A DNA stretch of 64,000 nt from a virus: positions 6,114 to 70,113 of the IMG/VR virus record IMGVR_UViG_3300044655_001189; one strand, written 5' to 3'. Numbering within the stretch: the stretch's first letter is position 1; each line of letters opens with the position of its first letter. Below, piece by piece: positions 3,374 to 62,393 of this stretch. A program made the position numbers and the translations under genes. The notes beneath the pieces were generated by a model. That model was not told the origin of the DNA, made no database searches, and worked only from the letters and a program-made list of their open reading frames with translations.

Positions 3374-3612
3374 CCATTTTGTTTTTTAAATTCTCTGAGT
3401 TTTTTCATACTTGCATGCAAGGTACTCTTGCGTTTGAAAACAAACGATACAAGTGAACTGACTTTGAAGCGGACATTTTGCTCCAATAGTCTTAACATTA
3501 CTGTGCTCATAGCTTTCAAGATAACTCTTACTGTACGCTCAGGGATTTTCCGCTTCGCCATATCAGCAATAGTATTTGTAAGCTCTTCGCCTTGCTTGGT
3601 TGACCTATACAT
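3358..3612 (-). CDS. HU/IHF-like DNA-binding protein (divergent)
   Basis: Small basic protein with a helix-helix-beta pattern (ELTNTIAD...TVRVILKAM...LLEQNVRFKVSSLVSF). Confidence 0.5.
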   Translation of the reverse strand: MYRSTKQGEELTNTIADMAKRKIPERTVRVILKAMSTVMLRLLEQNVRFKVSSLVSFVFKRKSTLHASMKKLREFKKQNGWQRS

Positions 3613-4858
3613 AGCTCAAGATTTGAGTGTACTTACCATTCCAAAAGCAATCAACACTTCCTGCACCAGTACTCCTACCCTTGCCAATGATTACCTCAAG
3701 CTCTTGGATGTCTGAATTGCTTAATGATTCAGCACCAAAGTAAGCTGGCCTGTATGGAAACAATACATAGTCTGCAGCTTGCTCTATTTCACCTGATTCA
3801 CGCAAGTCACTAAGCTTGGGCTTGGTATTAGCACGCTTGGTATTCTCTCTGCTCAACTGACTAAGCGCAAAGACAATCGTATGCGTTTCCATTGCCACAT
3901 CCTTAAGCTGTCGTGCTATGGTAGCAATCTCCTGTTCCCTAGACTTTACACCCACTACAGTTACAAGCTGTAAATAGTCGACTACAAACGCTTTGTACCC
4001 TAAAGCGGCCTTAGCCCTTATCCCATTACAGATGTCCAGTAAGGTGCGAGCTTTGGCATTGACAAACCAACGGTGATTGGCTAGTCGGGAACGTAAAGCA
4101 TCTATGTCAGCTTTCTGCTGCAAAGTAAGACTGCCTTGCTTGATTGCATCGTTAGGTATCGAAAGCAAAGAACAACACCAACGCTGGACTAACTGAGTGT
4201 CTGGCATTTCTAACGAATAGAAACCCATAGGCTCGTCATGCAATACATTCTGAATCATTATGTGTAATGCTACAGAAGTCTTGCACATACCTGCGTTACC
4301 TGCTATGATAACCATATCCCCTGGCTCAAAGAAACCAATGAAATTATCAAGCGGTGCTATGCGTGATTTCAAACCTACTGATTGACGGTCAGGTGATAGC
4401 ATATCATCGAAAATGCTATCAGTATCTCTGACACGGTCACCCAATTGAGGTAGTACCAAATTCATACGGGCTGCATCAGCATCAACATAAATGTTGCTAC
4501 CGTTGTTAGCTGCGTAAGTAAGTTGATACCCTACTTGCATACAGATGTCCTTGGCTTTAAGTTCAAACAAGTCACGTAGGAGTAGCTGAACTACAGCATC
4601 ACGAAACACAACTGCAGGACTGAACAAGGCAACTAGCGAAGCTTGGCCAGAATAAAAGCTGGTATCGATCCCACGTAGCGAAGCTTGCAAAGTTTCTATC
4701 GCAACGGACTGCGGTGGAATACGAAGCAAAGCATCGGCTATAAAGTCACGTCCTTGCGTAAACATGTCCGAAGTCAATTGTGAGCTGTAAGCAGCCATTC
4801 TTAATGGCTCTTGGCACAGTAATGCGAGAACCTGATTTTCTATTTCTGCTCTCGTCAT
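3605..4858 (-). CDS. dnaB: DnaB-like replicative helicase
   Basis: IIAGNAGMCKTS (Walker A), FYSLEM, VVDYLQL, ALSQLSR, PKLSDLRESGEIEQAAD, IIGKGR. Confidence 0.95.
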   Translation of the reverse strand: MTRAEIENQVLALLCQEPLRMAAYSSQLTSDMFTQGRDFIADALLRIPPQSVAIETLQASLRGIDTSFYSGQASLVALFSPAVVFRDAVVQLLLRDLFELKAKDICMQVGYQLTYAANNGSNIYVDADAARMNLVLPQLGDRVRDTDSIFDDMLSPDRQSVGLKSRIAPLDNFIGFFEPGDMVIIAGNAGMCKTSVALHIMIQNVLHDEPMGFYSLEMPDTQLVQRWCCSLLSIPNDAIKQGSLTLQQKADIDALRSRLANHRWFVNAKARTLLDICNGIRAKAALGYKAFVVDYLQLVTVVGVKSREQEIATIARQLKDVAMETHTIVFALSQLSRENTKRANTKPKLSDLRESGEIEQAADYVLFPYRPAYFGAESLSNSDIQELEVIIGKGRSTGAGSVDCFWNGKYTQILSYV

Positions 4859-5250
4859 AAGTTTTCTTTAATTATGGTTTGTAAAGTAATTAACTGTGAA
4901 GGTGAAAGGTTTAGGCGTTTATCCAGTATCACTGCTTTAAGCAATGCCATGTTACGTTCCGTAGGGCCATTCATTTCTTTCATTACTGAATTGGCAACTG
5001 TTATTGCCAATGGTGTGCTTTGATTACTCGAATGCATTGAAAGGTAACCTAACGCTTTGGTGCGACCTAAATTCAATGGCTCGTGCAATGAGCGTAACGG
5101 GTATTTGAACCACTTAGCATTGATGATGATAGTGGCTTCCTTTACGATACTGCCTAAGTAGCTGCGATTGGACAGTAGGGTATCGTATGTGATTCCTACA
5201 TGGTTGCAACAGGCTGTGATGGTATCGGAAATGGTTTCATTAAACGTCAT
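4855..5250 (-). CDS. hypothetical protein, possible DnaA C-terminal-like HTH
   Basis: ITACCNHVGITYDTLLSNR...YPLRSLHEPLNLGR loosely resembles DnaA domain IV; coupled to dnaB. Confidence 0.4.
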   Translation of the reverse strand: MTFNETISDTITACCNHVGITYDTLLSNRSYLGSIVKEATIIINAKWFKYPLRSLHEPLNLGRTKALGYLSMHSSNQSTPLAITVANSVMKEMNGPTERNMALLKAVILDKRLNLSPSQLITLQTIIKENL

Positions 5251-5608
5251 TTACGTTAGTGAAGCCAATAGCAGAACTGCCGTCAGTCAGAATCTCTGGA
5301 CGTACTACGCGGCCATTGGGCGTGACTACTTTGGTTTGAGTTACCAAGTAAAGTTTATTGTGTAGAATAATCGGTTTAACCGATTTTCTTCCCGTTTTAG
5401 GAAAGTCCACATCAATGCGAGCAATCTGCCCGTTTGGTTTAGACTTTATTGGTAACTGTAGTGCTCTAGCAATCTCTTTGATTTTGGCAAAGATTCGACC
5501 TGCTTTAGCTGGGTCTGGTTGCTCTGCAATTTTGGGTGCAGCACCATTGAGTTGACCCTTTAACTTGAGTAGGTCGGTATTGTTGGCAAGTGGTTTGTAG
5601 GTACGCAT
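5240..5608 (-). CDS. hypothetical basic protein
   Basis: ORF track. Start reassigned to ATG 5608 (MRTYKP), which directly follows a TCACTATC box. Confidence 0.6.
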   Translation of the reverse strand: MRTYKPLANNTDLLKLKGQLNGAAPKIAEQPDPAKAGRIFAKIKEIARALQLPIKSKPNGQIARIDVDFPKTGRKSVKPIILHNKLYLVTQTKVVTPNGRVVRPEILTDGSSAIGFTNVNDV

Positions 5609-5654
5609 GATAGTGATTATGTGGTTGTGGCAAAATTGCCGATGCAAATAAAGT

Positions 5655-6495: not shown

Positions 6496-6687
6496 TTACT
6501 GCATTGAAGCAATAAGCGCAATGTTTTTTTCACGTTGGAATGATGCGTCAACGTAATTAGGCTCGGTAGGCAGTGATATATCGTCCTCGGTTTCGTCAAA
6601 GATGGCAATAGCATCTTTGAGTGTAGAAGCTTCGATGTGAACAGTACCGTACACTTCCCATGTTACAGGGATTTTGAAAGTAGCCAT
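6496..6687 (-). CDS. small acidic phage protein (DpnD/PcfM-like pattern)
   Basis: FKIPVTWEVYGTVHIEASTLKDAIAIF pattern, common in small phage early proteins. Confidence 0.6.
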   Translation of the reverse strand: MATFKIPVTWEVYGTVHIEASTLKDAIAIFDETEDDISLPTEPNYVDASFQREKNIALIASMQ

Positions 6688-6692
6688 GATAA

Positions 6693-6881
6693 TTAGTCGT
6701 TAATGAAGCTTGCACCGTAAAAAAACAAGTTGATGTTTAGTACACCGTGTTCACATTCAATAGCAAATAATGCTCTATTGGAATCTCCATAAGAAAAGCT
6801 AATGAATGATAAGCCAAAGCGTTTGTCTGAAGGGTAAACGTAAAGCTGTAGTAGATTGAATTGGAAATCGCGTTCTTCCAT
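6693..6881 (-). CDS. hypothetical protein
   Basis: Start reassigned to ATG 6881 (MEERDF), downstream of the terminator. Confidence 0.55.
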   Translation of the reverse strand: MEERDFQFNLLQLYVYPSDKRFGLSFISFSYGDSNRALFAIECEHGVLNINLFFYGASFIND

Positions 6882-6909
6882 GATGGCGAGAATATAAGTG
6901 ATAGTGAAT

Positions 6910-7652: not shown

Positions 7653-7907
7653 TTACAGAACGTCAAAGTCCATGTTAGGGTCACTAACGCAGTCGAAGCA
7701 ATACACATCATTGTGGGGAATACTGCATCCACAGTCGGTGCATTCGCTTTTGGTGTTAGGACACCCTTTCTCGTGGAGAGGTGTGCCGTTAACGACCATT
7801 GCAACACATTGGCTGCATTGGACGGTAATGAAAGCGCCATCATGCTTGGATTTGTCGAAGCCTAAATCAATAAGTTGTTCAACGTGCATAGCTAAACCTA
7901 ATTTCAT
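7653..7907 (-). CDS. small Cys-rich zinc-binding protein
   Basis: CSQC...HEKGC...CTDC...CFDC. Confidence 0.65.
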   Translation of the reverse strand: MKLGLAMHVEQLIDLGFDKSKHDGAFITVQCSQCVAMVVNGTPLHEKGCPNTKSECTDCGCSIPHNDVYCFDCVSDPNMDFDVL

Positions 7908-8068
7908 GGCTTTACGAATAGAGGACGTTCGTGACTATCCTCGCATACTTGGCGGCACCATGCAAGTGCTTGGCCTGTTGGGAAGTGTTGTTTCCAGATG
8001 GCTTGAGCAAGTGCCATACGGTATTTGCGCCCGTACCAACGCTTTCTTAGATTGAGTGAATTATTCAT
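7904..8068 (-). CDS. small hypothetical protein (54 aa)
   Basis: Manual translation MNNSLNLRKRWYGRKYRMALAQAIWKQHFPTGQALAWCRQVCEDSHERPLFVKP; ATGA overlap with the next gene. Confidence 0.6.
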   Translation of the reverse strand: MNNSLNLRKRWYGRKYRMALAQAIWKQHFPTGQALAWCRQVCEDSHERPLFVKP

Positions 8069-8144
8069 TACTTAACCCGATTCGCTTTTGCTGTTTTCTT
8101 GGCTGTACACGGGTAATACAGTTGCGGTGAATGATAGTGATTGG

Positions 8145-8618
8145 TTAAATGAATTTGACTAAGGCGATACTGGATATGCTAGTAGGGTCGTAGTCGTAAG
8201 CGAGTGACATTAAAGTGTGCAGGGTAATACCACTGGTGGTGGCATCATCTACAAACAGAATGTGTTTATGTGCAAGTCGTTCTGGTTTGGCAAAGCGAAT
8301 TGTGCGCATAATAGATCTGGGCGTCCTTCTACCACCTAAACAGAAGCTTGCTGCATTACGAGAGCGAACAAGGCAATTTAAGGGCGTGTGACGGCCTTTG
8401 TAACCCATAACCAACGTAGTGATACTGTTGGTGGTGCCGACCTTGTGAGAGGGCACAGGAATGAGTATGGTGGGGTATTCGAGCGTGTCAAAGTACTGGT
8501 ACATTTCAGCACGAAAGAACTCGTAGTCGAACTGAGCACCATCTTTGAAATTCAGAAGCATACGCCTCATGTGGTTAGGCTTGCTGCCGAATGTGGTGTG
8601 TAAGCTGTCTATGTGCAT
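8145..8618 (-). CDS. type I phosphoribosyltransferase-fold protein (ComF-like)
   Basis: LIPVPSH and the PRPP-binding loop ILFVDDATTSGITL. Confidence 0.8.
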   Translation of the reverse strand: MHIDSLHTTFGSKPNHMRRMLLNFKDGAQFDYEFFRAEMYQYFDTLEYPTILIPVPSHKVGTTNSITTLVMGYKGRHTPLNCLVRSRNAASFCLGGRRTPRSIMRTIRFAKPERLAHKHILFVDDATTSGITLHTLMSLAYDYDPTSISSIALVKFI

Positions 8619-8620
8619 GA

Positions 8621-9160
8621 TTAGAAGTATCTGCTACGTTTGAGAGGATGAGTTTTGGAGAGAGCATCGAAGTATGGTTCTCCTGTAACGCGGTCTACCT
8701 CATTTTTGCAGAGTTGGTAGTAGTCAGAATCAGAAAGATGCGGATGGTGAGCGATATGATTGCTGTGCTCCGTTTTAGAACGGGTGACAGAATCATTAGT
8801 GCCAATCCAAGGCTTGTGACTGGATAGGCGCTGGCCGCAAATTAAACAGATACGTAATGTATTCGGCTCTTCAAACAAAGGAATGCGCTCAAGTTTATCC
8901 CATTCAGAAACAGGAATACCAACTTGAAAGCGTTTGTCAAGACTATCCCATTTGACCATCCGAAGCTTTTTTTCATCAGCATCTGGAAGTTTAATGAAGA
9001 TGCTATCTGGAAAGTCAGGGTGCTTGCGCCCATCATACATTAGAGCAAGATGCTCTAATTCACGGTTAACATCAAATAGCTTGGATAGAAGCTCAGCTTT
9101 ACGGACATCTGCATTGTGAACGGCTGAGTCAAGGCTGATATGGAAATGGGATTGTTCCAT
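8621..9160 (-). CDS. hypothetical protein
   Basis: 179-aa ORF with a CLIC...H...H possible Zn site. Confidence 0.65.
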   Translation of the reverse strand: MEQSHFHISLDSAVHNADVRKAELLSKLFDVNRELEHLALMYDGRKHPDFPDSIFIKLPDADEKKLRMVKWDSLDKRFQVGIPVSEWDKLERIPLFEEPNTLRICLICGQRLSSHKPWIGTNDSVTRSKTEHSNHIAHHPHLSDSDYYQLCKNEVDRVTGEPYFDALSKTHPLKRSRYF

Positions 9161-9242
9161 GGTTGTAGATGCAGCGTTGTGAACCCGTTAGGGCAAGGCC
9201 ATTACGCTGCGGCCTTTGGTTGGTTAAGGGATAGTGAAAGAT

Positions 9243-9596
9243 TTAATGTGCATTACGACACGCTTGTAGTAAGCGTGTTGCATAAGGCAGTGCGTGGTAT
9301 TCACGCAGAAATTCCTCGGACAGTTGGCATCTGTGTACTGCCGTATATCCGATTGGTATAACCTCCAGAACACTTGTGATTATGTCCGCTTTAATCAGGG
9401 CTTGCAATATCCCTTCGTTTTCGGAGTAGTTCTTTATTATGGCTTGGTCAACATCTACAAAGCGGTCTATTACTACCGTTGCGGTCATAAAGTCCTCCCC
9501 TGTGGACTCTTCGTAAAGAGTAATATCCGTCAGGTGACGGTAGGTATCGCGGTACATGACAGCGATACAGGCGGTGTTTAAAAAGGTAATTTTCAT
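9243..9596 (-). CDS. hypothetical phage protein
   Basis: IIKNYSENEGILQALIKADII motif, a pattern I recognise from small phage proteins. Confidence 0.65.
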   Translation of the reverse strand: MKITFLNTACIAVMYRDTYRHLTDITLYEESTGEDFMTATVVIDRFVDVDQAIIKNYSENEGILQALIKADIITSVLEVIPIGYTAVHRCQLSEEFLREYHALPYATRLLQACRNAH

Positions 9597-9734
9597 TCGT
9601 TATGGTGTTGCTCTGAAACCTACATTTGAGTAGGAACGCCAGCATCTAAGTTTTTGGTTATGCCAATATTGGCTTTGCTCCCCTTGTCACATCGCTGTGA
9701 CTAACGCTCTCAGAGCAAGGGGAATTACTACGTT

Positions 9735-10058
9735 TTAGTTAATTGGGCTTAATATCCAATTAGATGCATCGCAGAAGTGAGGGTTACGAATAATAGCATA
9801 TTGAAAATTCAATATATCTTGCGCAAGTCTTGGACATTGAATGCGTCTAGCTTGGCAGGTCATTAGACGAAGCATACGAAGGGCAGTAGCAATGTCGAAT
9901 TCGTTGTTGATACCTAAGTAGCATTTGTTGAATTCAATTGCAATGATGTCGTAAGCTATGCCTCGTTTGCCGCTACGATAGGCAGAAGTGGAGGCTTTGA
10001 GTTGTTTGCGTGTGTAGTTAACAATCTCAGGACGGTTGGCAAATGGTACGTGTTGCAT
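9735..10058 (-). CDS. hypothetical protein
   Basis: 107-aa ORF in the early operon. Confidence 0.6.
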   Translation of the reverse strand: MQHVPFANRPEIVNYTRKQLKASTSAYRSGKRGIAYDIIAIEFNKCYLGINNEFDIATALRMLRLMTCQARRIQCPRLAQDILNFQYAIIRNPHFCDASNWILSPIN

Positions 10059-10185
10059 TGGTAAGAGTATTAGGCACTGTTTGATGATAGTGAGGTTCCG
10101 ACACTACATTGGATTGCTCACTGGTGGCTACTGTCACAGCAGTCATAGCTCCCTATGCTTTGTTTCCGTGGCATAGGGATAGGCG

Positions 10186-10407
10186 TTAGCCTTTGAAGAG
10201 AATGCGGTCAAGACGCGCATACTTTTCTTCTTTGGTTAATAATTCGGTGTTGATTACACGGTCAACACTTAGGCCTGCTGCCACAGCATCAGCAATAATT
10301 GCTTCATGCTTGCGTGGTTTGCGAGGTGGCGTGGTCAGGGTTTTGCCATATAGTATGACAGGTTCTGAAACACAGGTAATAGTGGTAATTCTGGGTCGCT
10401 TAGCCAT
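10186..10407 (-). CDS. hypothetical basic protein
   Basis: 73-aa ORF directly downstream of the hammerhead. Confidence 0.6.
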   Translation of the reverse strand: MAKRPRITTITCVSEPVILYGKTLTTPPRKPRKHEAIIADAVAAGLSVDRVINTELLTKEEKYARLDRILFKG

Positions 10408-10431
10408 TTGATGGTTTATTAAGCTTTGACG

Positions 10432-10504
10432 GTGTCTGCCATCATCAGTAATCAGGAAACACCCTGACTAGATCCACAATGCTTCACAGCAGGTGGATTT
10501 CGGC
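10432..10504 (-). ncRNA. type II hammerhead ribozyme with loop I pseudoknot
   Basis: Minus strand GCC-GAAA-UCCAC..GUGGA-UC^-UAGUCAGG-GUGUUU-CCUGAUUA-CUGAUGA-U-GGC-AGACAC. The full CUGAUGA/GAAA/UH core and three stems are present, and loop GUGUUU pairs with 3' AGACAC. Predicted cut between 10471 and 10470. Confidence 0.9.
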
Positions 10505-10510
10505 TTTTAA

Positions 10511-10936
10511 TTAGTAACTGTTTAGAAGTTCTTGGTATTCAGCGTGTACAATGCAGTTACCACAGTATGTGTGACCGTTGGTGTGCGTGTACAATGGGCT
10601 GAATGAACCTCTGCGCTCACATGCATAGCAGCGCACTTCAACAGGACGATTAGGTATGTGAACATAACCAACTACCCTTGGCATTGGCCTTGGCACTGCC
10701 ACAATAGGAGCTGGCTTAGCCACAGGCTTTTCAAGTTGACCATCTGCTATGTAGAAAGCAGATACAGCTGCAACGAATAGCGCAAGGAAACAGGCAATGC
10801 CTAAGCAGACTGTTGACTGCACCATTGGTATTAGCTGGAATGAGCCAAGCGTGGCTATCCAAACTAAGGTTAGTGAGAAGGTTGGTGCGATAGCGGCAGC
10901 TATCACATTGCGAACAAAGAAATACGTTGCTTGCAT
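10511..10936 (-). CDS. membrane protein with C-terminal Zn finger
   Basis: Two hydrophobic helices, a Pro-rich linker, and CYAC...CGNC. Confidence 0.65.
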   Translation of the reverse strand: MQATYFFVRNVIAAAIAPTFSLTLVWIATLGSFQLIPMVQSTVCLGIACFLALFVAAVSAFYIADGQLEKPVAKPAPIVAVPRPMPRVVGYVHIPNRPVEVRCYACERRGSFSPLYTHTNGHTYCGNCIVHAEYQELLNSY

Positions 10937-11024
10937 TGTTACTGGTGACGGTGTTTAGGCAGTCGTCGGCTGAGAGTGATAGTGAGTGTGCTATGACTAC
11001 GCACTATCGGGTTATGGTCTAAAT

Positions 11025-11093
11025 CACGGACTTGGAACCGTGTTGCTTCGTATGAAGCAAGGCCTTACAAGGGATGTTCTCCCTTGTCCTCGG
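11025..11093 (-). ncRNA. twister-like ribozyme, P5-type permutation, copy A
   Basis: Minus strand CC-GAGG-ACAAGGGA(GAACA)UCCCUUGU^AA-G-GCC-UUGCUUC(AUAC)GAAGCAA-CACG-GUUCCAAGUC-CGUG. Twister UAA, GAGG, GCC and L4 GUNCCAAG elements are present; stems covary with copy B. Confidence 0.75.
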
Positions 11094-11096
11094 TAA

Positions 11097-11351
11097 TTAG
11101 ATGGCGCAATACAGGAACTGCAATGAGTGATTGTTCTGGGCACAGACCCAAAGCAATTGTTCAATAGAGAATTCTTGCAACATGAACCATCGGTTGTCAG
11201 TCCGTGGCACATGAATGTGTGCTGTGTATCTGGCATCAGAGCGAGCCAGACCAAACTTCTCAGGGGTTTGCAATTCAAACCACTGTGAAACGTGGGTAAC
11301 ATTTAAGTCCTTGTCGTTACAAGGGCCTTGAGCAACAAAATGAAAGCGCAT
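11097..11351 (-). CDS. hypothetical protein (flanked by two twister-like RNAs)
   Basis: 84-aa ORF. Confidence 0.6.
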   Translation of the reverse strand: MRFHFVAQGPCNDKDLNVTHVSQWFELQTPEKFGLARSDARYTAHIHVPRTDNRWFMLQEFSIEQLLWVCAQNNHSLQFLYCAI

Positions 11352-11433
11352 GGTTTATCAATACCTATTCTTGGCTCGTAAGGATTTGAACGAGTTGCGT
11401 GGGTGATAGTGAAAGCCTCACTACGTGTTGATT

Positions 11434-11500
11434 ACTGGACTTGGAACCAGTCTGCCAATGCAGGGCCTTACAACCCACCACTACGGTGGGCTGTCCTCGG
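11434..11500 (-). ncRNA. twister-like ribozyme, P5-type permutation, copy B
   Basis: Minus strand CC-GAGG-ACAGCCCACC(GUAGU)GGUGGGUUGU^AA-G-GCC-CUGC(AUUG)GCAG-ACUG-GUUCCAAGUC-CAGU. Unpaired core identical to copy A, with different stems. Confidence 0.75.
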
Positions 11501-11926
11501 TTAATTGTTATTAGCCATATCAGTGTAGTACTGAATGATGCGGCTTTCTAAGCGATGGAAATGACCTTTGTTGCTTACTACATCAGCGAGGTCTGTCATG
11601 ACCATAGATTTGCCATCAGGTAATGGAAGCGTAGCTTTGACAACGATTAAATCAAAAGCATTAACTTCTCCTTCTGACATACTAGCTAAGGCAGCTTGTT
11701 GCAAAGAATGGAAGGACGTTTGTGGAGCACGATTCTTACGCTGTATCAACGTGTATAGCCTGCGTGCTGCTTGTATCTCGTAGTAAGCTGATACCAACGT
11801 GTCGGCCACTCCTAACTTGTAGGATGTAACCTTCACCTGACCATAACGAGGCGTGAACTTGTAAACAAGCGTTTTGCCATCTAATGCTACTACTCTTAAC
11901 TCATGGGTAACTGATGCGTTTGCCAT
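11501..11926 (-). CDS. hypothetical protein
   Basis: 141-aa ORF, first gene of the ribozyme-rich cluster. Confidence 0.65.
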   Translation of the reverse strand: MANASVTHELRVVALDGKTLVYKFTPRYGQVKVTSYKLGVADTLVSAYYEIQAARRLYTLIQRKNRAPQTSFHSLQQAALASMSEGEVNAFDLIVVKATLPLPDGKSMVMTDLADVVSNKGHFHRLESRIIQYYTDMANNN

Positions 11927-12502
11927 TTCTTACTGGGATGCTCTATAAACTCTTGCGAGAGGTCAAGCATCGAAACCTTTTGATTCATCGCACAGCAATA
12001 GGGTTACGCCACTACAGCGCATTACCTACTACCATGCAATTAAATTTGCTTTAACGAAAGGAAAGCTTTAGCTTTCGCACACGCGGATATTTACCACATA
12101 AGTAATGATACAACCAATATCAGATTGGATAATCACCGCTATTCAAGACATTACCATCATCGACAATACATCGGCTTGGTGATAGTGACCCTTCGGAAAC
12201 CCACGCTATACCTACGATTGATGCAATCAAATGTAATCAACCATGATACAGATAGCATAATAATAACTACTACTAATAGTATCTATATATATATATGTGT
12301 GCGAGAAAGATTTTGAATTGTATGTGTGAAATAATCACAGACTATATATCCAAAAAAAGGTGATGGGGGGGATAAACGGAAATGACGAATGGTACGGGGG
12401 TTGGTGGGATGTGTCCCTCCACAGAAGATACTCTTATATCCACGGGTAATACCCTTATGTATTCTGTAATGGTGTTACTCTAGTAGAAGAGCTTAGAACT
12501 CT

Positions 12503-12729: not shown

Positions 12730-13092
12730 TTAATATAAACTTGCTATTTTTTCATTAATTCCATAATCAAGTAAGATGTATTTCTTGCCTTTTACCCCCC
12801 AATTTTGGGGATTACGTAAATCGCAGTTATCGAAATTAAATTCAAGAACTTTTGATTTAATACGTCTGATTACTAGGATTGGTATTGATTCAACGGCAGC
12901 ATATCTCTTCTGACATACAACACCCATGAACATCCATTTCAGTTCTGCTAATGGTGCTATATGCTTGTATTTATCCCAAATTCTTTTTTCATTAAGTCCT
13001 TGTAAATAACCTTTTCTACCTATAGGAATCTTGATAACTACATCATTAAATAGAATCACAAATCTCGTTGAATGTTTAAATGAAATCATCAT
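12730..13092 (-). CDS. minimal protein-kinase/APH-fold protein
   Basis: VVIKIP (catalytic Lys), conserved Glu in NEKRIW, DLRNPQNWG catalytic loop, LLDYG metal loop. Confidence 0.6.
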   Translation of the reverse strand: MMISFKHSTRFVILFNDVVIKIPIGRKGYLQGLNEKRIWDKYKHIAPLAELKWMFMGVVCQKRYAAVESIPILVIRRIKSKVLEFNFDNCDLRNPQNWGVKGKKYILLDYGINEKIASLY

Positions 13093-14365: not shown

Positions 14366-14817
14366 GATTTCTATTGATTAGTGTTTCTGTATCGTGTATG
14401 TGTATAAGCATCCCTTCCCTGTCATGTTAGACAGAGTTGCCAGAAGCTTGGTTCGAAAGCTATTGGCACGCTACATGTATCTCTTGACATCCCTGTTGGT
14501 GCTTGACTGTCCTCTCGATAAACTATCCTTTCGGTAGCATGACGTGACCAAGTTGACGGATGCTAAGTCAGAGCTTGGATTTGTGAGAGAGCGTGAGAAC
14601 TGTAACTGGTAACTACTCCGAGGTGGTTTGGACGTCTATCGTTTCAGTCCAGGGGTCAGAGTTTTAGAGCCACCCCTATTGTGTCATGGTACTGGTAGAA
14701 ATGAGAATCCCCCTAAGAAGCGACCACTCTTCTTTCGGGGGATTTCTTTTCGCTTGGATCTTGTAAACCCGTAGCTAAAGGTCTTTGGTGTGCAGGAGGT
14801 CGTTTGCTGCTATGGCA

Positions 14818-14825
14818 CAAATGTA
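14818..14825 (-). promoter_or_regulatory. Bacteroidota primary-sigma -7 promoter element (leftward)
   Basis: Minus strand TACATTTG matches TAnnTTTG at the strand switch. Confidence 0.6.
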
Positions 14826-14900
14826 AAAGTATTTTCCAGTCTTTAACACTTGTCCACTAAAAAGTCAGTTCGGGTGTAATTCTGTTTGAGAGTGGTGGGG

Positions 14901-14908
14901 TATGTTTG
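14901..14908 (+). promoter_or_regulatory. Bacteroidota -7 promoter element (rightward)
   Basis: TATGTTTG, 23 nt before ATG 14932. Confidence 0.6.
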
Positions 14909-14931
14909 CAGCCTAACCAATTCACAACTAA

Positions 14932-24090: not shown

Positions 24091-25473
24091 ATGATTGTAA
24101 ATACAGGAAATTCTAGCACTTCGGCTACAGAAGCCAATTCGCTGATTACCAATTTGCTCAAGTACCCCGAAATCAGTCCAGTAGTTACTGACTTGTTTCC
24201 TCAGTATTCTTTGAACTACTTTATTGAGAACACCAAAAAGTATGCAAAGGAAGTTGAGTACGGGTCAAACAACGTAAGTTGGTTTCTAAAAGGACGTAGA
24301 TCACGTCCAAGTATTATTGACCCTGCCTATACAGGTTCGGCTACTGCAGGTGCTGGTAACACAGCTTTTGTGGTTGACTTTGCTCCAGGCGAATTGCATC
24401 TTTACCCTAAAGCGGTTGTTCGCTTTCCGGGCGAAGTAAACGCATGGGTAGAAAGTATCTCTGGCCTACAGGTTACTTTCCGTTTACAGGACAATAGTTC
24501 AACCCCTGCTACTGTAGACTTGTCTGCACCGGGTGGTATGACTGTTGGTATTATTGGAAACATGAACGAAGAAGGTTCTGCTCGTGGTTACGGCAACCAA
24601 ACGTTCCCTGATAAATACACCAATTACATGGGTATTTACCGCCAAGAAATGGAGATTACAGGCGATGCCTTGACCGACAAACTTTGGATTGAGTACAATG
24701 GCCAAGCGTTGTGGTATCACCGTCAATGGGCTGAATGGATGGAAGAGATTGAGTACGAGCGTGAGCTTGCACGTATCTACATGCACGCTACTATGAACAA
24801 TGCTGGTGTTGCTTTCCAATACGAGCCTGTGAGTGGTAAGCCGTTGATTCACGGTGATGGTCTGTTGAAGCAGATTGGTTTGAACAACGTTGACACCTAC
24901 TCAGGTGCTTCTTTGACTGAATCGCAAATTACTTCATTCCTTGCTGCTTTGTCTTTGAATACAGGACAGGGTCAAGAGTATTTGGTACTTGGAGGAACTG
25001 CAGGTATTTTGGCATTCGAAACTGCTATGAAAGCTTATGCTCCAGCGTTTGGTGCTCGCTTTGCAATGTCAGGTGGTGGTGATGTTACCCTTGGTGCTAA
25101 TTATCGTTCATTCGTGGGCTTTAATACCAAGTTGACTATCGCTCACAACCCATGTTTTGATGATGTGAACATTCACGGAAACGATATGGTAACTAATGCT
25201 TTTGGTGTTTATCCAAAAGAAAGTTACCGTTTGTTGTTCTTGAATGTGGGCAAACAAGGAGTAAGTAACTTCAACTTGGAAATGGCTGTAAAGTCTGCAG
25301 GTGGAATCAATCGTGGACGTGTTATCAAATACGTAAATGGTATGATTGACCCAATGAACCCAAGCAGCATGTATGCCGCAAGCGGTGATGACAAATTCAA
25401 AATTGAATATTTGTCACACACTGCATTGGTATTGCGCAATCCATGGAGTTGCGGTATGTTAGTACACGCCTAG
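24091..25473 (+). CDS. major capsid protein (HK97 fold)
   Basis: Position and size; EEGS...YTNYMGIYRQEMEITGDA, GDGLLKQI, and C-terminal LRNPWSCG. Confidence 0.88.
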   Translation: MIVNTGNSSTSATEANSLITNLLKYPEISPVVTDLFPQYSLNYFIENTKKYAKEVEYGSNNVSWFLKGRRSRPSIIDPAYTGSATAGAGNTAFVVDFAPGELHLYPKAVVRFPGEVNAWVESISGLQVTFRLQDNSSTPATVDLSAPGGMTVGIIGNMNEEGSARGYGNQTFPDKYTNYMGIYRQEMEITGDALTDKLWIEYNGQALWYHRQWAEWMEEIEYERELARIYMHATMNNAGVAFQYEPVSGKPLIHGDGLLKQIGLNNVDTYSGASLTESQITSFLAALSLNTGQGQEYLVLGGTAGILAFETAMKAYAPAFGARFAMSGGGDVTLGANYRSFVGFNTKLTIAHNPCFDDVNIHGNDMVTNAFGVYPKESYRLLFLNVGKQGVSNFNLEMAVKSAGGINRGRVIKYVNGMIDPMNPSSMYAASGDDKFKIEYLSHTALVLRNPWSCGMLVHA

Positions 25474-28833: not shown

Positions 28834-29539
28834 AGCTTCGATTTACCAAGCCATTGACATGGCTAGACGAGGACTAGAGATAGAACAACTAGGCCCTATT
28901 ATGTCAACTTTCATAGAGTGGGTATGGGATGGAGAAAAGAAAATCGGTTCTTCTGTAACATTTACTCGAAAGGAATGTTTGATTGACATTGATGAAAATG
29001 GTGTAGGTTGCTTACCAAAGGATGTGCTTTATATTCTTGCCATAGGTAAAACAGGCATGAAAATGGAACAGTCTACTACAGACTTCCAATTGTTTGAAAA
29101 AAAACTTGTAAATAACAATAGTGGATTTGCAATGACTTCTTCTGCATCAGCAAGTCAATACCTAGATGCATTGTATGGGTTCTTCATTAATAGCCCAATG
29201 AAGTTCTCTGTGCACAATGGAAAGATTTATATGGCTGGATATAAATCTGGTCAAATATCAATTGCTTACAAAGGAGTATGCTTAGATGATGAAGGATATC
29301 CATTGGTAAATGAATTGCATATAGAAGCGTTAGCAGCGTTCCTTATCTATATGCACACGCAAACTGAATATCTACGCGCAAGAGCGCCTAAGTACCTGCA
29401 TGATGATATGAAGCTACGCTGGCTAGAGTTATGCCTACAGGCACGCTCTGAGGACGAAATGCCAAATCCACTTGACCTACGCATACTTAATGGTATCTGG
29501 AATAATATGCTTCCACTAGGCGAATTAAATAATTTCTGA
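28820..29539 (+). CDS. ring / tail tubular protein (P22 gp4-like)
   Basis: IEWVWDGEKKIG, LPKD, IAYKGVCLDDEGYPLV...EAL motifs. Confidence 0.75.
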   Translation: MIQNKASIYQAIDMARRGLEIEQLGPIMSTFIEWVWDGEKKIGSSVTFTRKECLIDIDENGVGCLPKDVLYILAIGKTGMKMEQSTTDFQLFEKKLVNNNSGFAMTSSASASQYLDALYGFFINSPMKFSVHNGKIYMAGYKSGQISIAYKGVCLDDEGYPLVNELHIEALAAFLIYMHTQTEYLRARAPKYLHDDMKLRWLELCLQARSEDEMPNPLDLRILNGIWNNMLPLGELNNF

Positions 29540-32500
29540 TGATAGAACATAGCAACGAATTTTCTGGCGGCTTAGACCGAGGAACAAATGAGCGTACACA
29601 GATGGAGAAAACCATCTTTGACAGCGTAAATGGTCAACTTTACTTTGACCATACAGGAAATGTGATATGGCGGCCATATAATGGCAACACGCGCATGCTT
29701 GTTTTTGATTGTGAGCAAGATGATCCAATAACCTCTGCTGCAGTAGATACGGGCAATAGTGCAGTGCATACTCCGATAGGTGGGTGTTCCTTTGCCGATT
29801 GCTTTATTGTAATAACGGTACGTCAAACATCAGGTTTATATGACCCAATGATTATATGGCTATTCCAAGAAAATGTGGATGGTGAAGTCTATGGTCAGGT
29901 GCTATTGTCAGACGTTGCTTCTACAGACAAATTCAATCAGAAAATCTCGAATAACATTCGGATGCGTCCAATTTATGAGAACGATGAACTGTATCGTATC
30001 AAATGGGTTGATGGTGTAGAAATCGATAGCAATCCACCAAGGTCACTGACTTTTAGCAAGACGGGAACGGTAACAGGCCCAACATACAACGGAGCGACTG
30101 TCACAGGTCGCTTTTCTGTTTTTACGGTTTTAGGTAATGTAACACCTACATTGACCAATTTAATGGCTCCATTTAAGATGGGGTATATCCATTTTCTCAA
30201 GCGAGTAAAAGGTCAAATAGCTTCTGGTCGATACATTTATTTATATCGGGAAATTTTAGAAGATGGGTATCGCACACCATGGAGTCACCATACTAATCCT
30301 GTATTTGTTTCTGTAGACATACAAAATGGAACTGATATGCATCTGTATGAAATGGAAGGAAGCAATGAAGTTACAGTGCATGGAAATCGTTTAGGAATAT
30401 ATGGTGTAGATATAGCTTACCAAACATTAGAAGTAGCCTATGTGTATATTCCTGATGATACTAACATTCCTACGGTAGCTGCTTCATTTGCTTTTATAGA
30501 AATTAATGGCCAAGGTTACATTGAGGTTGACCATACATCAATGAGTGGAGAGATATTGAATGTGGCTGAAATTATTGCACTTCGTTTAAATATGACAGCA
30601 GCTCAAACATTGGAAATAAAAGACGAGCATTTATGGCATGGCAACTATAAAGCTGGAAGTTTATTATTGACCAATAATGAAATAGAAAAAGTTTTAGAAG
30701 GATTAAAAGTCATTCACATTTTCCGTGACATGCCAATAGATAGAAAAGGCAAAACAGATAAATTTGGAAACATTGATCCAATCAATTTATTCAATTTACC
30801 ATTAGAAACTAGAGATACCAAATTTGCACTAAACGATGTGCAAGAGTTCACATTTCCAATTGACGATGATTACTGTGGTTATAGAGGGCAGCAGATTGAT
30901 AACACTTATGTTGGATATCCAAGGGATGAAGTTGGTCGTTTTGGAATAGTGTTTTATGACTTAGTAGGTAACCCTACAAACGTAGAGCACTTCTGTGATT
31001 ACTACTGGCCTAAAATGTATTTGGGTGGTGATGGTACGAGTGACCCATCAGGAACGCCAGTAGCTGTAATTGACCCTGATTTATCTGCTAAAGCTTTTCG
31101 CATTCGTAGGGATGATTCTCGCACTCTAACGGGTATAGGTGATCCTGATAATATTTTGGATTTAACTGCATTGTCTTTGCATAAACGTTCATGGCTTACT
31201 ACAGGTGGAGCTGATGTGCATAGCATTAGCGACCCTACGCTTGAGCGTGCTGTGGTAGATGGTGACGACCCATTGACAGACACTATGCAGCATTACACCA
31301 ATATGCCACAATCCTATGCGCGTATACAAGGAATTAAATTCTCTGGCATAGACATATCAGATATTCGCGACAAAATTAGTGGGTATGCTATTGTGCGTTG
31401 CCCTATAGAGTATTCCACGATAGCACAGGGGCTAATTTCACCTACGTCCATCACAGACGACCAAGGCGATGAGGAACGCCTAGGCCCATGGCCAAGACCT
31501 AATTTGGCATTCCGTGATTATGGTATTGGTTCTTTTGGTGTTGCTCCTAGTGACAATCATGGTGAGTTCAGAGCAAGTGGATATACACCTATACGTTTAT
31601 GGGATAGACAAGAAGGTAACGGTGTGTATTTGAATGGAACGTCAGACTTCTTTTCAATGTATATTCCAGAAATGATGTTCGGTTCTCCGATGCCATCTTA
31701 CAATCAAGGGCAGAAATTTGAGTTGGTTCAAGTTTGTTGGGAAGAGTATAACTGCGGTCAGGAAGATGCAAGTACTTTATTTCCAACAGGACTTCTTGCA
31801 CCAGTAGGGCCATATCTATCAAACAACTTTGCTTTAGATAAACATTCATGGCATTTGCTTGTGAATACGCGAATACATCATTTCAATATTCCACCTGCAC
31901 CTGCATCACAACCATACTCGTGGAACTTTCATTCTGAGGACCAAGGAATACCATTTGATGCTACGAACATAATGCCAGCGGCTTTATATGCTTCTTCTTA
32001 TGGTGTATCATGGGGTACTTTAGGTCAGGCCGAAGCTTTATTTCCAACATATGGAACTACATTCACTCCTGACTGGCTTCGTAAAATTGGAATGAATGAG
32101 AAAGAGTATGGAATCGACCCATCCTATCCTGCGCGGTTTTTTCACAATATGAAATGGTATTATCATCCATCAGATTATGACGCACCTACACCTGCAGACC
32201 GAGATCGCCATGATGATTATTATGGAGGATTCCGTGATTACGCAAATCTTTTAGCTGATTATTATGATCAATCAAAACGTCAAGCGGTAGGTCACGATAA
32301 TACTATACTACTGCGCAATACTATTGCAATGAAGGACTGGAATGGCACCACTTCTCCATGCCGACACGTCATGGCTTTTCCAATGCCTACGTGGGCATAC
32401 GAAACTTTAGGTGGTTCTGCAGTGCCAAGTGCCAATGCTTACGCTCACGATGCTAAGAGAGGTGCTACTGCTCGGTGGATGGTAAACTGGAAACGAGAAC

Positions 32501-34728
32501 TTGGTGCACCATATGGTGGCAACTTTCAAAATAATTTGCAATACAATATTTTTATTGGAACTGGTCATTTTCAACCTGTAGGTAATGATGAATTTGACAC
32601 ATTTATGGGTGCTACTACTCCTGACCGTATTGATAATGCAGAAGTTTGGGGTGGGGAATGTTGGTTGGACTTACATGCAGGAACGTTTATGTATCCGGGA
32701 TATGCGCATGACAAGATTTCTGACCAAGATTCTACTGGTTATTCAGTAGATTCATTTGGATTTATTTTAGCGTTTCCACATGAAGCTAGAATCAATCTTG
32801 CATTGCGTAATGCTCCATCACCGGGCAATCCTATGTCACCACACGCAGGTTTACGTTCATGGAAAATGTACAACGATTTTGCTGGTGCAGGTTCCTCACC
32901 TTGGACAGATAAAGGTCTATTCCACTATAGCGGATTGAATGGTGATGCAGAAGATGCTTCTAAGCACTTGATTGAAGAGTTCTTTATCAATGAAGTGATG
33001 GGCTATCGTGACAAGTTCAAAGGATATACTACGATACCTAGAGGATTTAGAAGTATTAAGCATTGGCCGCAACGGTGGGCATACAGCAACAAGAAAATCT
33101 ATGGTGAGATTGCCGATGTATTCAGAGAAGTTCTTATCGCAAATTACCGTGACCTAGATGGTTCATTTGGCGCAATCATGGCCAGTGCTAATCATGCGGA
33201 TAAAATCATTTCATTTCAAGAATTGGCCTATGGTCAATTGAGAATCTATGAGCGCACGATTATTCCATCAACAGAGGGGCAACTTACCACGGGTGATGCA
33301 AGTGTTATTGATGGCATCAAATACTCTACAGACCAAATAGGGTGTCAGCACCCTGAGTCGGTTGTTATTACACCAGATGGCGTGTATTGGGTTGACTGTT
33401 TTGCTTACTCCATATTTTTCTCTCAAGGAGAAGATGCTGTAAACTTGTCTGACAAGGCTGGCATGAATCAATACCTACGTGAATTGCTATGGAGATATGT
33501 GGGTGGCCGAAGCATCTATGGTGAAAAAGGGGTGGCCATTGTAGGTGGCTATGACCAACGTACTAAGCGTGTAACGATGTCCTTTCCTTCAATTATGAAG
33601 TATCAGGTACACAGCCGAAGCACAGCTCCATTCGATAGCAATAGGTACAATTGGTTTGGGCCTGTGTACACTACGGTTGCCATTAGTGGAAACAATCACC
33701 AGAGAGCGCGAGTAAAGCCATTGGATAAGGGTAGCGATGTTGCACAGGACATTACTAATGGCTATGTGCACATAAGCAATCAGGATATACTTGTAATACA
33801 TACGTTGGGCTATGGTGCGGTGCCAGCTTATTTGTATGTCGATTTGTATCAAGGCATCTATGGTAGCGATACGATTACACCATTAAGCAACACGGTGACT
33901 GAATTTTATTTGGTGTTACCGGGCAAGACAGGCACAGCTTCTAATAAAGGATGGGTAGTAGAATTTGCGAATTACCGCGAAGGAAGTCCTGACTTGACAA
34001 CTCCTGATATTGTAACTCCATTAGCTACAACAGTAACAGAAAAGGAAGGGTACGTTTATCACAATGCAATCTATCCGCATACACCACCTAGCCAATCTAT
34101 TGCTACGGATTCTGATGCTGCTGTGTTCCATTTGTTCAGAGCCGAGAAGGATAGTCCTTTCCAAGTTCGATTGATACAGTCTAGCAGTTCTTTTGAGGAT
34201 GTAGGGCTAGGAATACAGATGCGTAATCGGATGGTGTATAATGAAGAGTTCAAAGCATTCGAATCATTTATATCTGCAGGAGATATCTTCAACATCAATT
34301 TCAGAAAGAAGCGTTATGCTGCAATAGAAACCAGTGTAACGAATGGCATGTATGTAGATGACATGAGAAGTCCAGAAGTGCCAAAACTATACGGGAAAGA
34401 GTTTGAATCCTATCTAGAGTTTGTTGCTAATACAGGTGCTGCAATTGATAAAATTTTTGATGCTTTACGCCTTGACTCAAGCGATTTGGGCGATGTTAAG
34501 AGCGTGCGTTACACGAATGAAAATAATGCAGTATTGATTATTATTGCAACTGATTCTAGTGTTGCGTATATCAGGAGGATAAACCGTATACCAATTAGAA
34601 GGAAGTGGCAACTAAGTAGAGTGACGGGGCACTACCTTCGCGTTATGGTTGAGATAAATGGCAAGCGTAATAAATTGGCGTATGTGTTCACAGCTCGAAC
34701 TTTATTTAGACTAAGCAATAAAAACTAA
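29539..34728 (+). CDS. tail muzzle / stabilization protein (P22 gp10-like)
   Basis: 1729 aa; N-terminal FSGGLD, GYPRDEVGRFGIVFYD, WGGECW, YRDLDGSFGAI, GCQHPESVV..GVYWVD. Confidence 0.8.
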   Translation: MIEHSNEFSGGLDRGTNERTQMEKTIFDSVNGQLYFDHTGNVIWRPYNGNTRMLVFDCEQDDPITSAAVDTGNSAVHTPIGGCSFADCFIVITVRQTSGLYDPMIIWLFQENVDGEVYGQVLLSDVASTDKFNQKISNNIRMRPIYENDELYRIKWVDGVEIDSNPPRSLTFSKTGTVTGPTYNGATVTGRFSVFTVLGNVTPTLTNLMAPFKMGYIHFLKRVKGQIASGRYIYLYREILEDGYRTPWSHHTNPVFVSVDIQNGTDMHLYEMEGSNEVTVHGNRLGIYGVDIAYQTLEVAYVYIPDDTNIPTVAASFAFIEINGQGYIEVDHTSMSGEILNVAEIIALRLNMTAAQTLEIKDEHLWHGNYKAGSLLLTNNEIEKVLEGLKVIHIFRDMPIDRKGKTDKFGNIDPINLFNLPLETRDTKFALNDVQEFTFPIDDDYCGYRGQQIDNTYVGYPRDEVGRFGIVFYDLVGNPTNVEHFCDYYWPKMYLGGDGTSDPSGTPVAVIDPDLSAKAFRIRRDDSRTLTGIGDPDNILDLTALSLHKRSWLTTGGADVHSISDPTLERAVVDGDDPLTDTMQHYTNMPQSYARIQGIKFSGIDISDIRDKISGYAIVRCPIEYSTIAQGLISPTSITDDQGDEERLGPWPRPNLAFRDYGIGSFGVAPSDNHGEFRASGYTPIRLWDRQEGNGVYLNGTSDFFSMYIPEMMFGSPMPSYNQGQKFELVQVCWEEYNCGQEDASTLFPTGLLAPVGPYLSNNFALDKHSWHLLVNTRIHHFNIPPAPASQPYSWNFHSEDQGIPFDATNIMPAALYASSYGVSWGTLGQAEALFPTYGTTFTPDWLRKIGMNEKEYGIDPSYPARFFHNMKWYYHPSDYDAPTPADRDRHDDYYGGFRDYANLLADYYDQSKRQAVGHDNTILLRNTIAMKDWNGTTSPCRHVMAFPMPTWAYETLGGSAVPSANAYAHDAKRGATARWMVNWKRELGAPYGGNFQNNLQYNIFIGTGHFQPVGNDEFDTFMGATTPDRIDNAEVWGGECWLDLHAGTFMYPGYAHDKISDQDSTGYSVDSFGFILAFPHEARINLALRNAPSPGNPMSPHAGLRSWKMYNDFAGAGSSPWTDKGLFHYSGLNGDAEDASKHLIEEFFINEVMGYRDKFKGYTTIPRGFRSIKHWPQRWAYSNKKIYGEIADVFREVLIANYRDLDGSFGAIMASANHADKIISFQELAYGQLRIYERTIIPSTEGQLTTGDASVIDGIKYSTDQIGCQHPESVVITPDGVYWVDCFAYSIFFSQGEDAVNLSDKAGMNQYLRELLWRYVGGRSIYGEKGVAIVGGYDQRTKRVTMSFPSIMKYQVHSRSTAPFDSNRYNWFGPVYTTVAISGNNHQRARVKPLDKGSDVAQDITNGYVHISNQDILVIHTLGYGAVPAYLYVDLYQGIYGSDTITPLSNTVTEFYLVLPGKTGTASNKGWVVEFANYREGSPDLTTPDIVTPLATTVTEKEGYVYHNAIYPHTPPSQSIATDSDAAVFHLFRAEKDSPFQVRLIQSSSSFEDVGLGIQMRNRMVYNEEFKAFESFISAGDIFNINFRKKRYAAIETSVTNGMYVDDMRSPEVPKLYGKEFESYLEFVANTGAAIDKIFDALRLDSSDLGDVKSVRYTNENNAVLIIIATDSSVAYIRRINRIPIRRKWQLSRVTGHYLRVMVEINGKRNKLAYVFTARTLFRLSNKN

Positions 34729-61997: not shown

Positions 61998-62393
61998 TTA
62001 GTATAGGTCTGGCCAAGTGTTACGTGCACGAATGATACTGTGGTCACGGGCAATCTCCCGTTGTTTAGGATTGGCACTAGAGCCGCGACCAAAGAATTCT
62101 TCTTTGGCAACTCTAGCCCCACGCTTTTCACCTGCAATGAATCCTTCTCGGTAACGGTCTTTTACTGCTTCTGTCAAGTCAGTATTTGCATCTACCAACG
62201 AAAGCAATGTCTGCTCAAGGGTATCGAAGCTGGCTTCTTTCTCAAGCACAAGCTTATGTGCATTACTAAATTCAACAGAATTGGCGCCATGCTTTGCTCT
62301 AAGTCGATTCGAATAGGCAAGGTTCTTTGTACGCATGACTGTGATAATGGCTAGTGAAGCCTTTATCTGAACTTCAAGGGATGTGCTGTGCAT
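61998..62393 (-). CDS. hypothetical protein
   Basis: 131 aa; ATG directly preceded by a TCACTATC box. Confidence 0.6.
   Translation of the reverse strand: MHSTSLEVQIKASLAIITVMRTKNLAYSNRLRAKHGANSVEFSNAHKLVLEKEASFDTLEQTLLSLVDANTDLTEAVKDRYREGFIAGEKRGARVAKEEFFGRGSSANPKQREIARDHSIIRARNTWPDLY

Follow-up and report, generated by a model that had tools for sequence, protein, structure and literature searches.

We found a conserved leader motif directly upstream of early genes in a crAss-like phage, and its sequence suggests, at a probability of about one half, that it is an H-type pseudoknot which would act as a partner-stabilised translational operator by occluding the ribosome landing site of selected early genes. 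A translational switch had been among the readings offered in a preliminary description of this DNA, and at that probability it is the best reading here too. The stretch analysed, referred to as the window, is 64,000 nucleotides (nt) long and consists of bases 6114-70113 of a 70,113-bp IMG/VR virus record (IMGVR_UViG_3300044655_001189). Five instances of the motif were identified, namely copies 1 and 2 in the window and three copies at 6626-6686, 2162-2212 and 5042-5080 of a relative (L133/G001, hereafter L133), and all evidence for the motif comes from these two genomes, five instances and three paralogous lineages. The minus-strand genes of the window from 14365 downwards are small and mostly without family matches; a DnaB-type helicase at 3605-4858 ends the run, which is taken as the early block.

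Architecture of the motif

The copies share one order of elements: CGCAA, a 5-bp hairpin (P1) with a loop of 8-10 nt, CCAAG, an insert, GAAU, the 3' strand of a second helix (P2), 5-6 nt, and the start codon. The P2 3' strand pairs with the 3' part of the P1 hairpin loop, and the loop lengths are compatible with an H-type pseudoknot. The motif is 50-75 nt long, with about 14 conserved unpaired nt (CGCAA, CCAAG and GAAU); UGCAA replaces CGCAA once, CCGAG replaces CCAAG once, and the insert measures 0, 12 or 19 nt. The parts of the two window copies are as follows.

8069-8126, minus strand: motif copy 1, whole element; 59.5 bits in covariance model R2
8126-8122, minus strand: CGCAA of copy 1, followed by P1 (CTGTA 8121-8117 with TACAG 8107-8103) enclosing the loop 8116-8108
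8114-8110, minus strand: ACCCG in the loop of copy 1, the 5' strand of P2; its 3' strand is CGGGT at 8079-8075
8102-8096, minus strand: CCAAGAA of copy 1, then the 12-nt insert 8095-8084, GAAT 8083-8080, the 6-nt spacer 8074-8069 and ATG at 8068
11352-11399, minus strand: motif copy 2, minimal form; 30.2 bits in model R2
11399-11395, minus strand: CGCAA of copy 2, followed by P1 (CTCGT 11394-11390 with ACGAG 11379-11375) enclosing the loop 11389-11380
11374-11367, minus strand: CCAAGAAT (CCAA plus GAAT) of copy 2, then the P2 3' strand AGGTATTGA 11366-11358, the 6-nt spacer 11357-11352 and ATG at 11351

Both minus-strand sequences were present exactly as the preliminary description had quoted them (copy 1 at 8140-8068, copy 2 at 11412-11351), with the loop-complementary strand ending 6 nt before ATG in each. 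CGCAACT and GCCAAGAA occurred together only at these two copies in the whole 70,113-bp genome. A covariance model was built from copy 1 and its L133 ortholog only. It recovered copy 2 (13.3 bits, E 0.34) and revealed the third L133 copy at 5042-5080 (22.3 bits, E ~1e-3; both values for 76 kb, both strands), whose stem is wholly different from the others and perfectly paired. Model R2, made from four sequences, placed the five instances at 59.5, 58.0, 46.9, 30.2 and 14.1 bits, the next match in 76 kb being at 12.4. Whole-record model searches gave no further copies, and the weak L133 copy 2 was not listed there.

The motif had been presented as belonging to no recognised family, and this held. 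When the whole window was searched against Rfam at the gathering threshold only Hammerhead_II was returned, and searches of the two motif copies with Rfam 15 (141 and 131 nt, E<=10) yielded no match and one junk match (CRISPR-DR57, 13.9 bits), respectively; at E<=1 nothing was found at the three L133 copies. A match to an existing Rfam family, or homologues without covariation, had been named as grounds for abandoning the motif, and neither turned up.

Support for the two helices

P1 was Watson-Crick paired in 25 of 25 cells, four of its five pairs changed on both sides, and its covariation score was reached by none of 500 shuffles. When the 3' partner was slid by 1-3 columns as a control, 18-42% of cells paired. 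Between copies 1 and 2 of the window three of the five stem pairs differed on both sides and all stayed Watson-Crick, as had been claimed. In the L133 ortholog of copy 1 (6626-6686), stem pair 4 changed from U-A to C-G while the loop, CCAAGAA, GAAU and CGGGT were kept, and in that of copy 2 (2162-2212) the same stem pair changed from G-C to U-A. These two compensatory changes between orthologs are, at the level of sequence, the cleanest evidence for pairing. Furthermore, a loop C to G change in the copy 2 ortholog was matched by a G to C change in the tail.

P2 was judged by a duplex-energy test, which replaced a longest-helix test. Compared with shuffled loops, the duplex energy gave p values of 0.02 for copy 1, 0.027 for its ortholog, 0.10 for window copy 2 and 0.017 for copy 3, with a joint p of 2e-4 over three independent lineages. 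In addition, the best loop-tail duplex began at the first nt after GAAU in all five instances. The loop-tail helix is moderately supported by these results.

Position relative to the start codon

The start codon lay 5-6 nt after P2 in all five instances (four ATG and one GTG in frame with the open reading frame, ORF), and this fixed distance is, besides the fold, the single feature that all copies have in common. The ORFs behind the window copies are these.

7904-8068, minus strand: 54-amino-acid (aa) ORF starting 6 nt after copy 1, with a basic (arginine/lysine-rich) N-terminus and H..C..C..H spacing
11097-11351, minus strand: 84-aa ORF starting 6 nt after copy 2 and ending 3 nt before the second twister-like RNA described below

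The product of the 54-aa ORF has a 76% identical counterpart in L133; the slot of the 84-aa ORF is occupied there by an unrelated 104-aa ORF, and L133 copy 3 precedes the gene for a 119-aa protein. Neither window ORF had a family match, and the searches run returned no homologue and no atlas match for the 54-aa protein. Since the motif stands before unrelated ORFs, it is a portable module, which would act on whatever follows.

We then considered the surroundings of the start codon in general. Among the 56 gene leaders examined, five contained a Shine-Dalgarno (SD)-like tetramer, G was found at each of positions -14 to -9 in 0-4 leaders, and A was found at -10, -12 and -13 in 33-35. Such A-rich, G-poor leaders without SD are the initiation context of Bacteroidota. 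The low G content at -14 to -9 makes a G-rich P2 strand in this place exceptional.

If formed in vivo, the pseudoknot would bury approximately positions -7 to -60 of the mRNA, and because this covers a region that is otherwise A-rich, G-poor and SD-free, we infer a translational operator. The folded form would block 30S binding. As the helices are thermodynamically weak alone, a partner probably stabilises the fold, and by doing so it would switch the gene off. Candidates for the partner would be a phage or host protein or a small ligand; we rank a protein ahead of a small ligand, with constitutive structure last. It is tempting to speculate that the 54-aa basic protein behind copy 1 is itself the partner.

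Arguments against an operator and two alternatives

A number of observations weigh against a pseudoknot operator. The longest-helix test for P2, with G-U allowed, was not significant in any copy (0.13 to 1.0), the duplex energy of L133 copy 2 was weak (p=0.54), and P2 is partly an invariant CC:GG core. For the five leaders, minimum-energy folds had z values of -0.44 to +1.43 and were no stabler than shuffles, P1 being missing from some of these structures. The alignment behind the P1 pair counts was fitted to the model, its sequences being few and related; with two genomes about 80% identical in the region and three lineages, a test of the R-scape type is without power. In the window, the ortholog (9243-9596) of the gene that follows L133 copy 3 is preceded by another leader, which lacks the motif, so that this gene can do without it. 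Finally, P1 has no G-U pair in its 25 cells, so nothing ties the hairpin to RNA rather than DNA.

The weak fold and the ortholog that does without the motif are also what might be seen if this were a duplicated leader, spread by recombination, with a structural role (5' end protection or a basal translation level) or with none, and with no ligand or switch. The few copies belong to one small phage clade, none being convincing in 151 Bacteroidia genomes or in other fetched loci, and a different hairpin is conserved in the leader at 9229-9160, suggesting that structured leaders are common here. Nevertheless, both orthologous pairs show compensatory changes and the stem turns over fully among paralogs with perfect pairing, pointing to selection on pairing, and the roughly 14 unpaired nt are conserved while stems and loops change, for which a simple protective hairpin has no need. 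We regard a purely structural leader as unlikely.

A stem that covaries by Watson-Crick pairs only could likewise belong to a DNA hairpin promoter for a virion RNA polymerase, as in coliphage N4. The inverted repeat would then be extruded as a hairpin, its conserved flanks would be recognised by the polymerase, and transcripts would begin a short way downstream. The early promoters of N4 are hairpins with a 5-7-bp stem and a 3-nt loop carrying specific bases. The loops of the motif, by contrast, are 8-10 nt long and unconserved, and a hairpin promoter leaves unexplained the loop-tail complementarity, the variable distance of GAAU from the hairpin (0-19 nt) and its fixed distance from the start codon. 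The first copy also lies 3 kb into the early block, so that a further promoter would be required for the genes between 14365 and 11501. In favour of a hairpin promoter, each genome has 2-3 motif copies, every one on the early strand and with conserved flanks, and a giant 4309-aa ORF of the window carries a DHDGD motif. According to the parts of the study of crAss-like phages cited here, the virion RNA polymerase gp66 works well on DNA that is single-stranded or denatured and poorly on double-stranded DNA; the early transcripts that the virion polymerase of phi14:2 makes were found to share no common upstream motif (Drobysheva 2020, 10.1101/2020.03.07.982082). On balance, a hairpin promoter appears highly improbable, and we retain the translational operator as the preferred reading.

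A separate 9-bp box in early-gene sense

The preliminary description had included TCACTATCA, which precedes both window copies, as a part of the motif. This assignment could not be kept. The 9-mer occurs 0 times forward and 8 times reverse in this genome, and likewise 0 and 8 times in G001, always in early-gene sense, and the reversed pattern gave 1 and 2 as a control in this genome. At the L133 motif copies the box is absent beside copies 1 and 3 and degenerate beside copy 2. Because it is absent or degenerate beside three of the five motif copies, the box is not part of the RNA fold. The boxes of the window are listed below; those of G001 are mostly at orthologous places.

12180-12188, minus strand: box conserved in L133 at 1419
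11404-11412, minus strand: box directly 5' of motif copy 2; degenerate at the orthologous L133 place
10977-10985, minus strand: box lying 40 nt beyond the second twister-like RNA; counterpart conserved at L133 2639
10085-10093, minus strand: box conserved in L133 at 3838
8132-8140, minus strand: box directly 5' of motif copy 1; missing at the orthologous L133 place
6899-6907, minus strand: box immediately following a terminator-like hairpin and its T run; counterpart conserved at L133 8145
5608-5616, minus strand: box sharing its last A with the ATG of a 122-aa ORF
62393-62401, minus strand: box sharing its last A with the ATG of a 131-aa ORF

When compared with a crude ORF map covering 93% of the genome, five of the eight boxes fell wholly in the uncovered 7%; of the remainder, one touches only the A of an ATG and two overlap doubtful ORF calls. 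Boxes come after a terminator-like hairpin (6907) or after twister-like RNAs (11412 and 10985), and no conservation was seen upstream of the 9-mer. At three independent sites (window 5608 and 62393, L133 4760) the box shares its last A with the ATG that opens an ORF of 88-131 codons, and the G001 ortholog of box 62393 shows the same fusion. This is expected if the transcript starts at that position, giving a leaderless mRNA. We therefore infer that TCACTATCA serves the early block as a promoter or as a signal for transcript starts, probably at the last A of the 9-mer; alternatively, it could be a site of RNA processing.

The box resembles known short promoters. It shares TCACTAT with the core of T7-class promoters, and both these and the yeast mitochondrial nonanucleotide promoters are short, strictly oriented motifs upstream of genes that end at the transcript start. 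It differs from them in that nothing is conserved upstream of the 9-mer. T7-like RNA polymerase (PF00940) gave no match in G000 or G001, and none in the control genomes either.

Further occurrences were noted around the box. In L133 the beginning of the 64-aa ORF that follows copy 1 contains an exact TCACTATCA (6696-6704), where the window has a near-copy with one additional base, and box positions around the motif seem, from this comparison, to turn over. At 9160-9237 on the minus strand the window has a near-box, TCACTATCC, which is an exact TCACTATCA in the relative. The leader that follows it (ATG at 9160) is almost invariant between the two phages and folds at -21.4 kcal/mol (z -2.08), with a GGCC hairpin loop complementary to a 6-nt stretch 10 nt upstream of the ATG. 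No TCACTATCA precedes the first five early genes (14365 down to 12503), which must use another signal; the 566-nt divergent intergenic region between the early (minus) and late (plus) blocks, 14366-14931, contains several hairpins and no box. Outside this clade, the 9-mer occurs 7 times forward and 0 times reverse in G153 (locus L027), a 109.7-kb IMG/VR phage without a crAss-type capsid match, and 4 times forward and 0 times reverse in G154 (locus L035), a 36-kb relative of G153. Judged by these counts, the oriented 9-mer may also be used by this unrelated phage group.

The proximity of the boxes bears on a further explanation of the motif, a nut- or put-like processive antitermination site, at which a conserved linear box and a hairpin in the nascent RNA, a short way past an early promoter, would load a factor onto the polymerase for read-through of the early terminator-like hairpins. 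Both window copies lie 5-6 nt after a promoter-like box, terminator-like hairpins are found downstream (for example before box 6907), and the copy 1 gene encodes the conserved 54-aa protein with the arginine/lysine-rich N-terminus. Lambda N is encoded behind nutL, and by analogy this small basic protein could be the antitermination factor. Set against this, two of the three L133 copies are not near a box, and the hairpin loops are unconserved, unlike boxB, with no loop sequence shared among the three lineages. What stays constant is the distance to the start codon, and this favours a role in translation over one in transcription. An antitermination site thus seems most unlikely.

Ribozyme-like RNAs next to the motif

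A stretch of 1.1 kb contains three RNAs related to known ribozymes, placed between early genes and each immediately following a stop codon; all three are kept in the relative.

11435-11501, minus strand: Twister-P5-like RNA, 32.8 bits (gathering threshold 37.6), E 8e-4, 22 nt upstream of the copy 2 box
11026-11094, minus strand: second Twister-P5-like RNA, 32.6 bits, directly after the copy 2 ORF
10430-10505, minus strand: Hammerhead type II ribozyme, 42.8 bits against a gathering threshold of 37; L133 ortholog 41.7 bits

Both twister-like RNAs score below the gathering threshold of twister RF02684 (37.6 bits) and have the core blocks in common. The first is nearly invariant in L133 (32.7 bits there); the L133 ortholog of the second scores 29.8 bits and has one stem fully exchanged yet paired. 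The slot between them (11097-11412, minus strand, and L133 2130-2530) consists in both phages of a box, the motif and an ORF, the two ORFs (84 and 104 aa) being unrelated, a layout that suggests the swapping of a gene cassette between conserved RNA elements. An unrelated 41.8-kb IMG/VR phage (L254 3151-3230, minus strand) also has a twister-like RNA sharing these core blocks, directly upstream of an ORF.

This dense neighbourhood raises the question of whether the motif is a new class of small self-cleaving ribozyme that cleaves the polycistronic transcript of the early genes immediately ahead of the gene it precedes, in the way that the twister-like and hammerhead RNAs nearby presumably separate other genes. 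Conserved unpaired nt around freely varying helices are typical of small ribozymes, and pistol, in the parts of its description cited here, also has a short P1 with a loop pseudoknot (PMC4604425). Several points speak for a different function. No ribozyme family matched even at E<=10, and the 8 nt between P1 and P2 in the minimal copy leave no room for the P2 and P3 of pistol. The strict spacing of 5-6 nt to the start codon in five of five copies has no obvious use in cleavage, the known ribozymes here stand right after stop codons and not against start codons, and in the window copies, which lie 5-6 nt past the probable transcript start, cleavage would remove almost nothing. We consider self-cleavage quite unlikely, and the operator reading is preferred.

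A wider proposal can also be formulated, in which CGCAA-hairpin-CCAAG...GAAU would be a new functional RNA class of crAss-like phages, either a self-cleaving ribozyme or a ligand riboswitch gating early translation, standing beside a new 9-bp promoter, TCACTATCA, that gives leaderless mRNAs and could be a promoter type so far missing from the transcription programme of a crAss-like phage. Taken as a whole this proposal is doubtful.

The relative and the search for further copies

The window was assigned to Crassvirales on the basis of Crass_capsid (78.7 bits on 24091-25473) and crAss_MUZ (234.8 bits on 29539-34728), and Crass_capsid is also present in G001. Homologues of the helicase were found at 85, 68, 50, 42, 41 and 38% identity, of which IMG/VR holds only the 85% one, that of L133/G001. 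Homologues P0003 (68% identical, 72.9 kb), P0004 and P0007 came from ENA/Logan sources, and P0005 and P0006 are not in IMG/VR. The capsid of L133/G001 is 97% identical, and its early region is 71-90% identical in blocks, about 80% overall, with gene replacements. No relative was found when IMG/VR was searched with the window's own helicase, and a search with a capsid alignment gave the same relative only. When metagenomes were scanned with an alignment of seven helicase sequences, generic DnaB motifs were picked up, and the matches listed were all at <=38% identity. Among GenBank phages there were only a match of 270 bp to Flavobacterium elemo phages and capsids at 24% identity.

Further copies of the motif were sought by pattern and by model. 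An exact-pattern scan of IMG/VR gave 51 stretches, none of which had the 3' block, and these are chance matches. A second pattern scan gave at least 115 stretches, 15 of them with a 3-bp stem, and none was credible among the matches listed; L220, the best-looking candidate, was rejected since it lies inside a 700-aa ORF. A twister-pattern scan of IMG/VR gave six stretches, with a real twister-like RNA only in the known relative and in L254. Model R2 found nothing in one Saprospiraceae metagenome-assembled genome (MAG). In 151 Bacteroidia genomes, where 43 first-look candidates were scored per genome, it gave three matches of 24-27 bits, none with a paired stem or the start-codon arrangement. 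The motif was not found in the other viral loci fetched. Nor did a literature search, which was not exhaustive, bring up a description of the motif or of the TCACTATCA box.

The DNA runs that hold this phage are lake and freshwater metagenomes. No RNA run holding the phage sequence was among the sequencing runs listed, and contigs from four lake and freshwater DNA runs showed no variants at copy 1 or copy 2.

Other observations on the phage genome

Three further regions of the window were noted. The segment 11927-12502 on the minus strand comprises 576 nt without a credible ORF; a box stands at 12188, and identity to the relative is 82%. By analogy with phi14:2, for which the parts of the report cited here mention highly transcribed intergenic regions (10.1101/2020.03.07.982082), it may be a non-coding early RNA. 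The 4309-aa ORF (39350-52279, plus strand) has no Pfam or PHROG match and no DFDxD; its SDHDGDM (DHDGD) at residue 2330 resembles the metal-binding motif of two-barrel RNA polymerases, and on this resemblance the ORF may encode a divergent virion RNA polymerase fusion. The 120-aa ORF at 12730-13092 (minus strand) is, at the DNA level, 76% identical to a gene in 62 Flavobacterium elemo phage records, and its product is 63% identical to one encoded in a Saprospiraceae MAG, on a contig of 30.9 kb; these matches hint at a host range towards Bacteroidota.

Implications and comparison with known systems

Phages of the crAss-like group are among the most abundant known and their early gene expression is barely understood. 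The genome offers two handles on it. One is the strictly oriented 9-mer TCACTATCA, which behaves like a transcript-start signal, with three leaderless-type ATG fusions. The other is the compact, covarying candidate pseudoknot that occupies the initiation region of several early genes unrelated to one another, in an SD-free type of host. If it binds a factor, it would constitute a portable translational operator for Bacteroidota-type systems. If instead it cleaves, a new ribozyme class would have been found near twister and hammerhead RNAs, like pistol and hatchet.

Although the architecture of the motif recalls several known RNAs, it belongs to none of the families of preQ1-I, SAM-II, protein-bound operators or pistol. 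Lambda-type nut sites have a conserved loop that an arginine-rich protein reads, and they follow an early promoter, a combination that the copies do not show, and the 8-10-nt loops set the motif apart from N4-type hairpin promoters with their 3-nt loop. Pistol (RF02679) is alike in its short P1 with a loop pseudoknot, its invariant unpaired nt and its presence in phage DNA near ribozymes; according to the parts of its description cited here, it was found by a search near other ribozymes and phage genes, and it needs P2, P3, a pseudoknot strand between the left shoulders and a GU junction after P3 (Harris 2015, PMC4604425). With 8 nt between P1 and P2 in the minimal copy, a start codon 5-6 nt after P2 and no Rfam match, the motif does not accommodate these parts.

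The closer likenesses are to translational control elements. The E. coli rpsO/S15 operator and the phage T4 gene 32 pseudoknot are also leader pseudoknots near an initiation region. Both act through protein-bound translational repression, the T4 element in the control of early/middle genes. No sequence relation to either was seen, the motif stands before several unrelated genes and not the regulator's alone, and the gene 32 pseudoknot lies further upstream of its start. With preQ1-I (RF00522) and SAM-II (RF00521) the motif has in common a 5-bp P1, an A-rich linker between P1 and P2, a length below 60 nt and a position on the ribosome landing site; in addition, the loop contributes its 3' part, including a CC core, to pairing with a G-containing tail beside the start codon. 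What it shares with preQ1-I is architecture only, that of a small H-type pseudoknot with an A-rich tail over the initiation region. It differs from both riboswitches in giving no model match at E<=10, in its conserved nt (CGCAA, CCAAG and GAAU), in the small uncharacterised phage ORFs downstream in place of queuosine or methionine genes, and in an SD-free host type. By analogy, the motif may work like the preQ1-I and SAM-II riboswitches or like the protein-bound operators.

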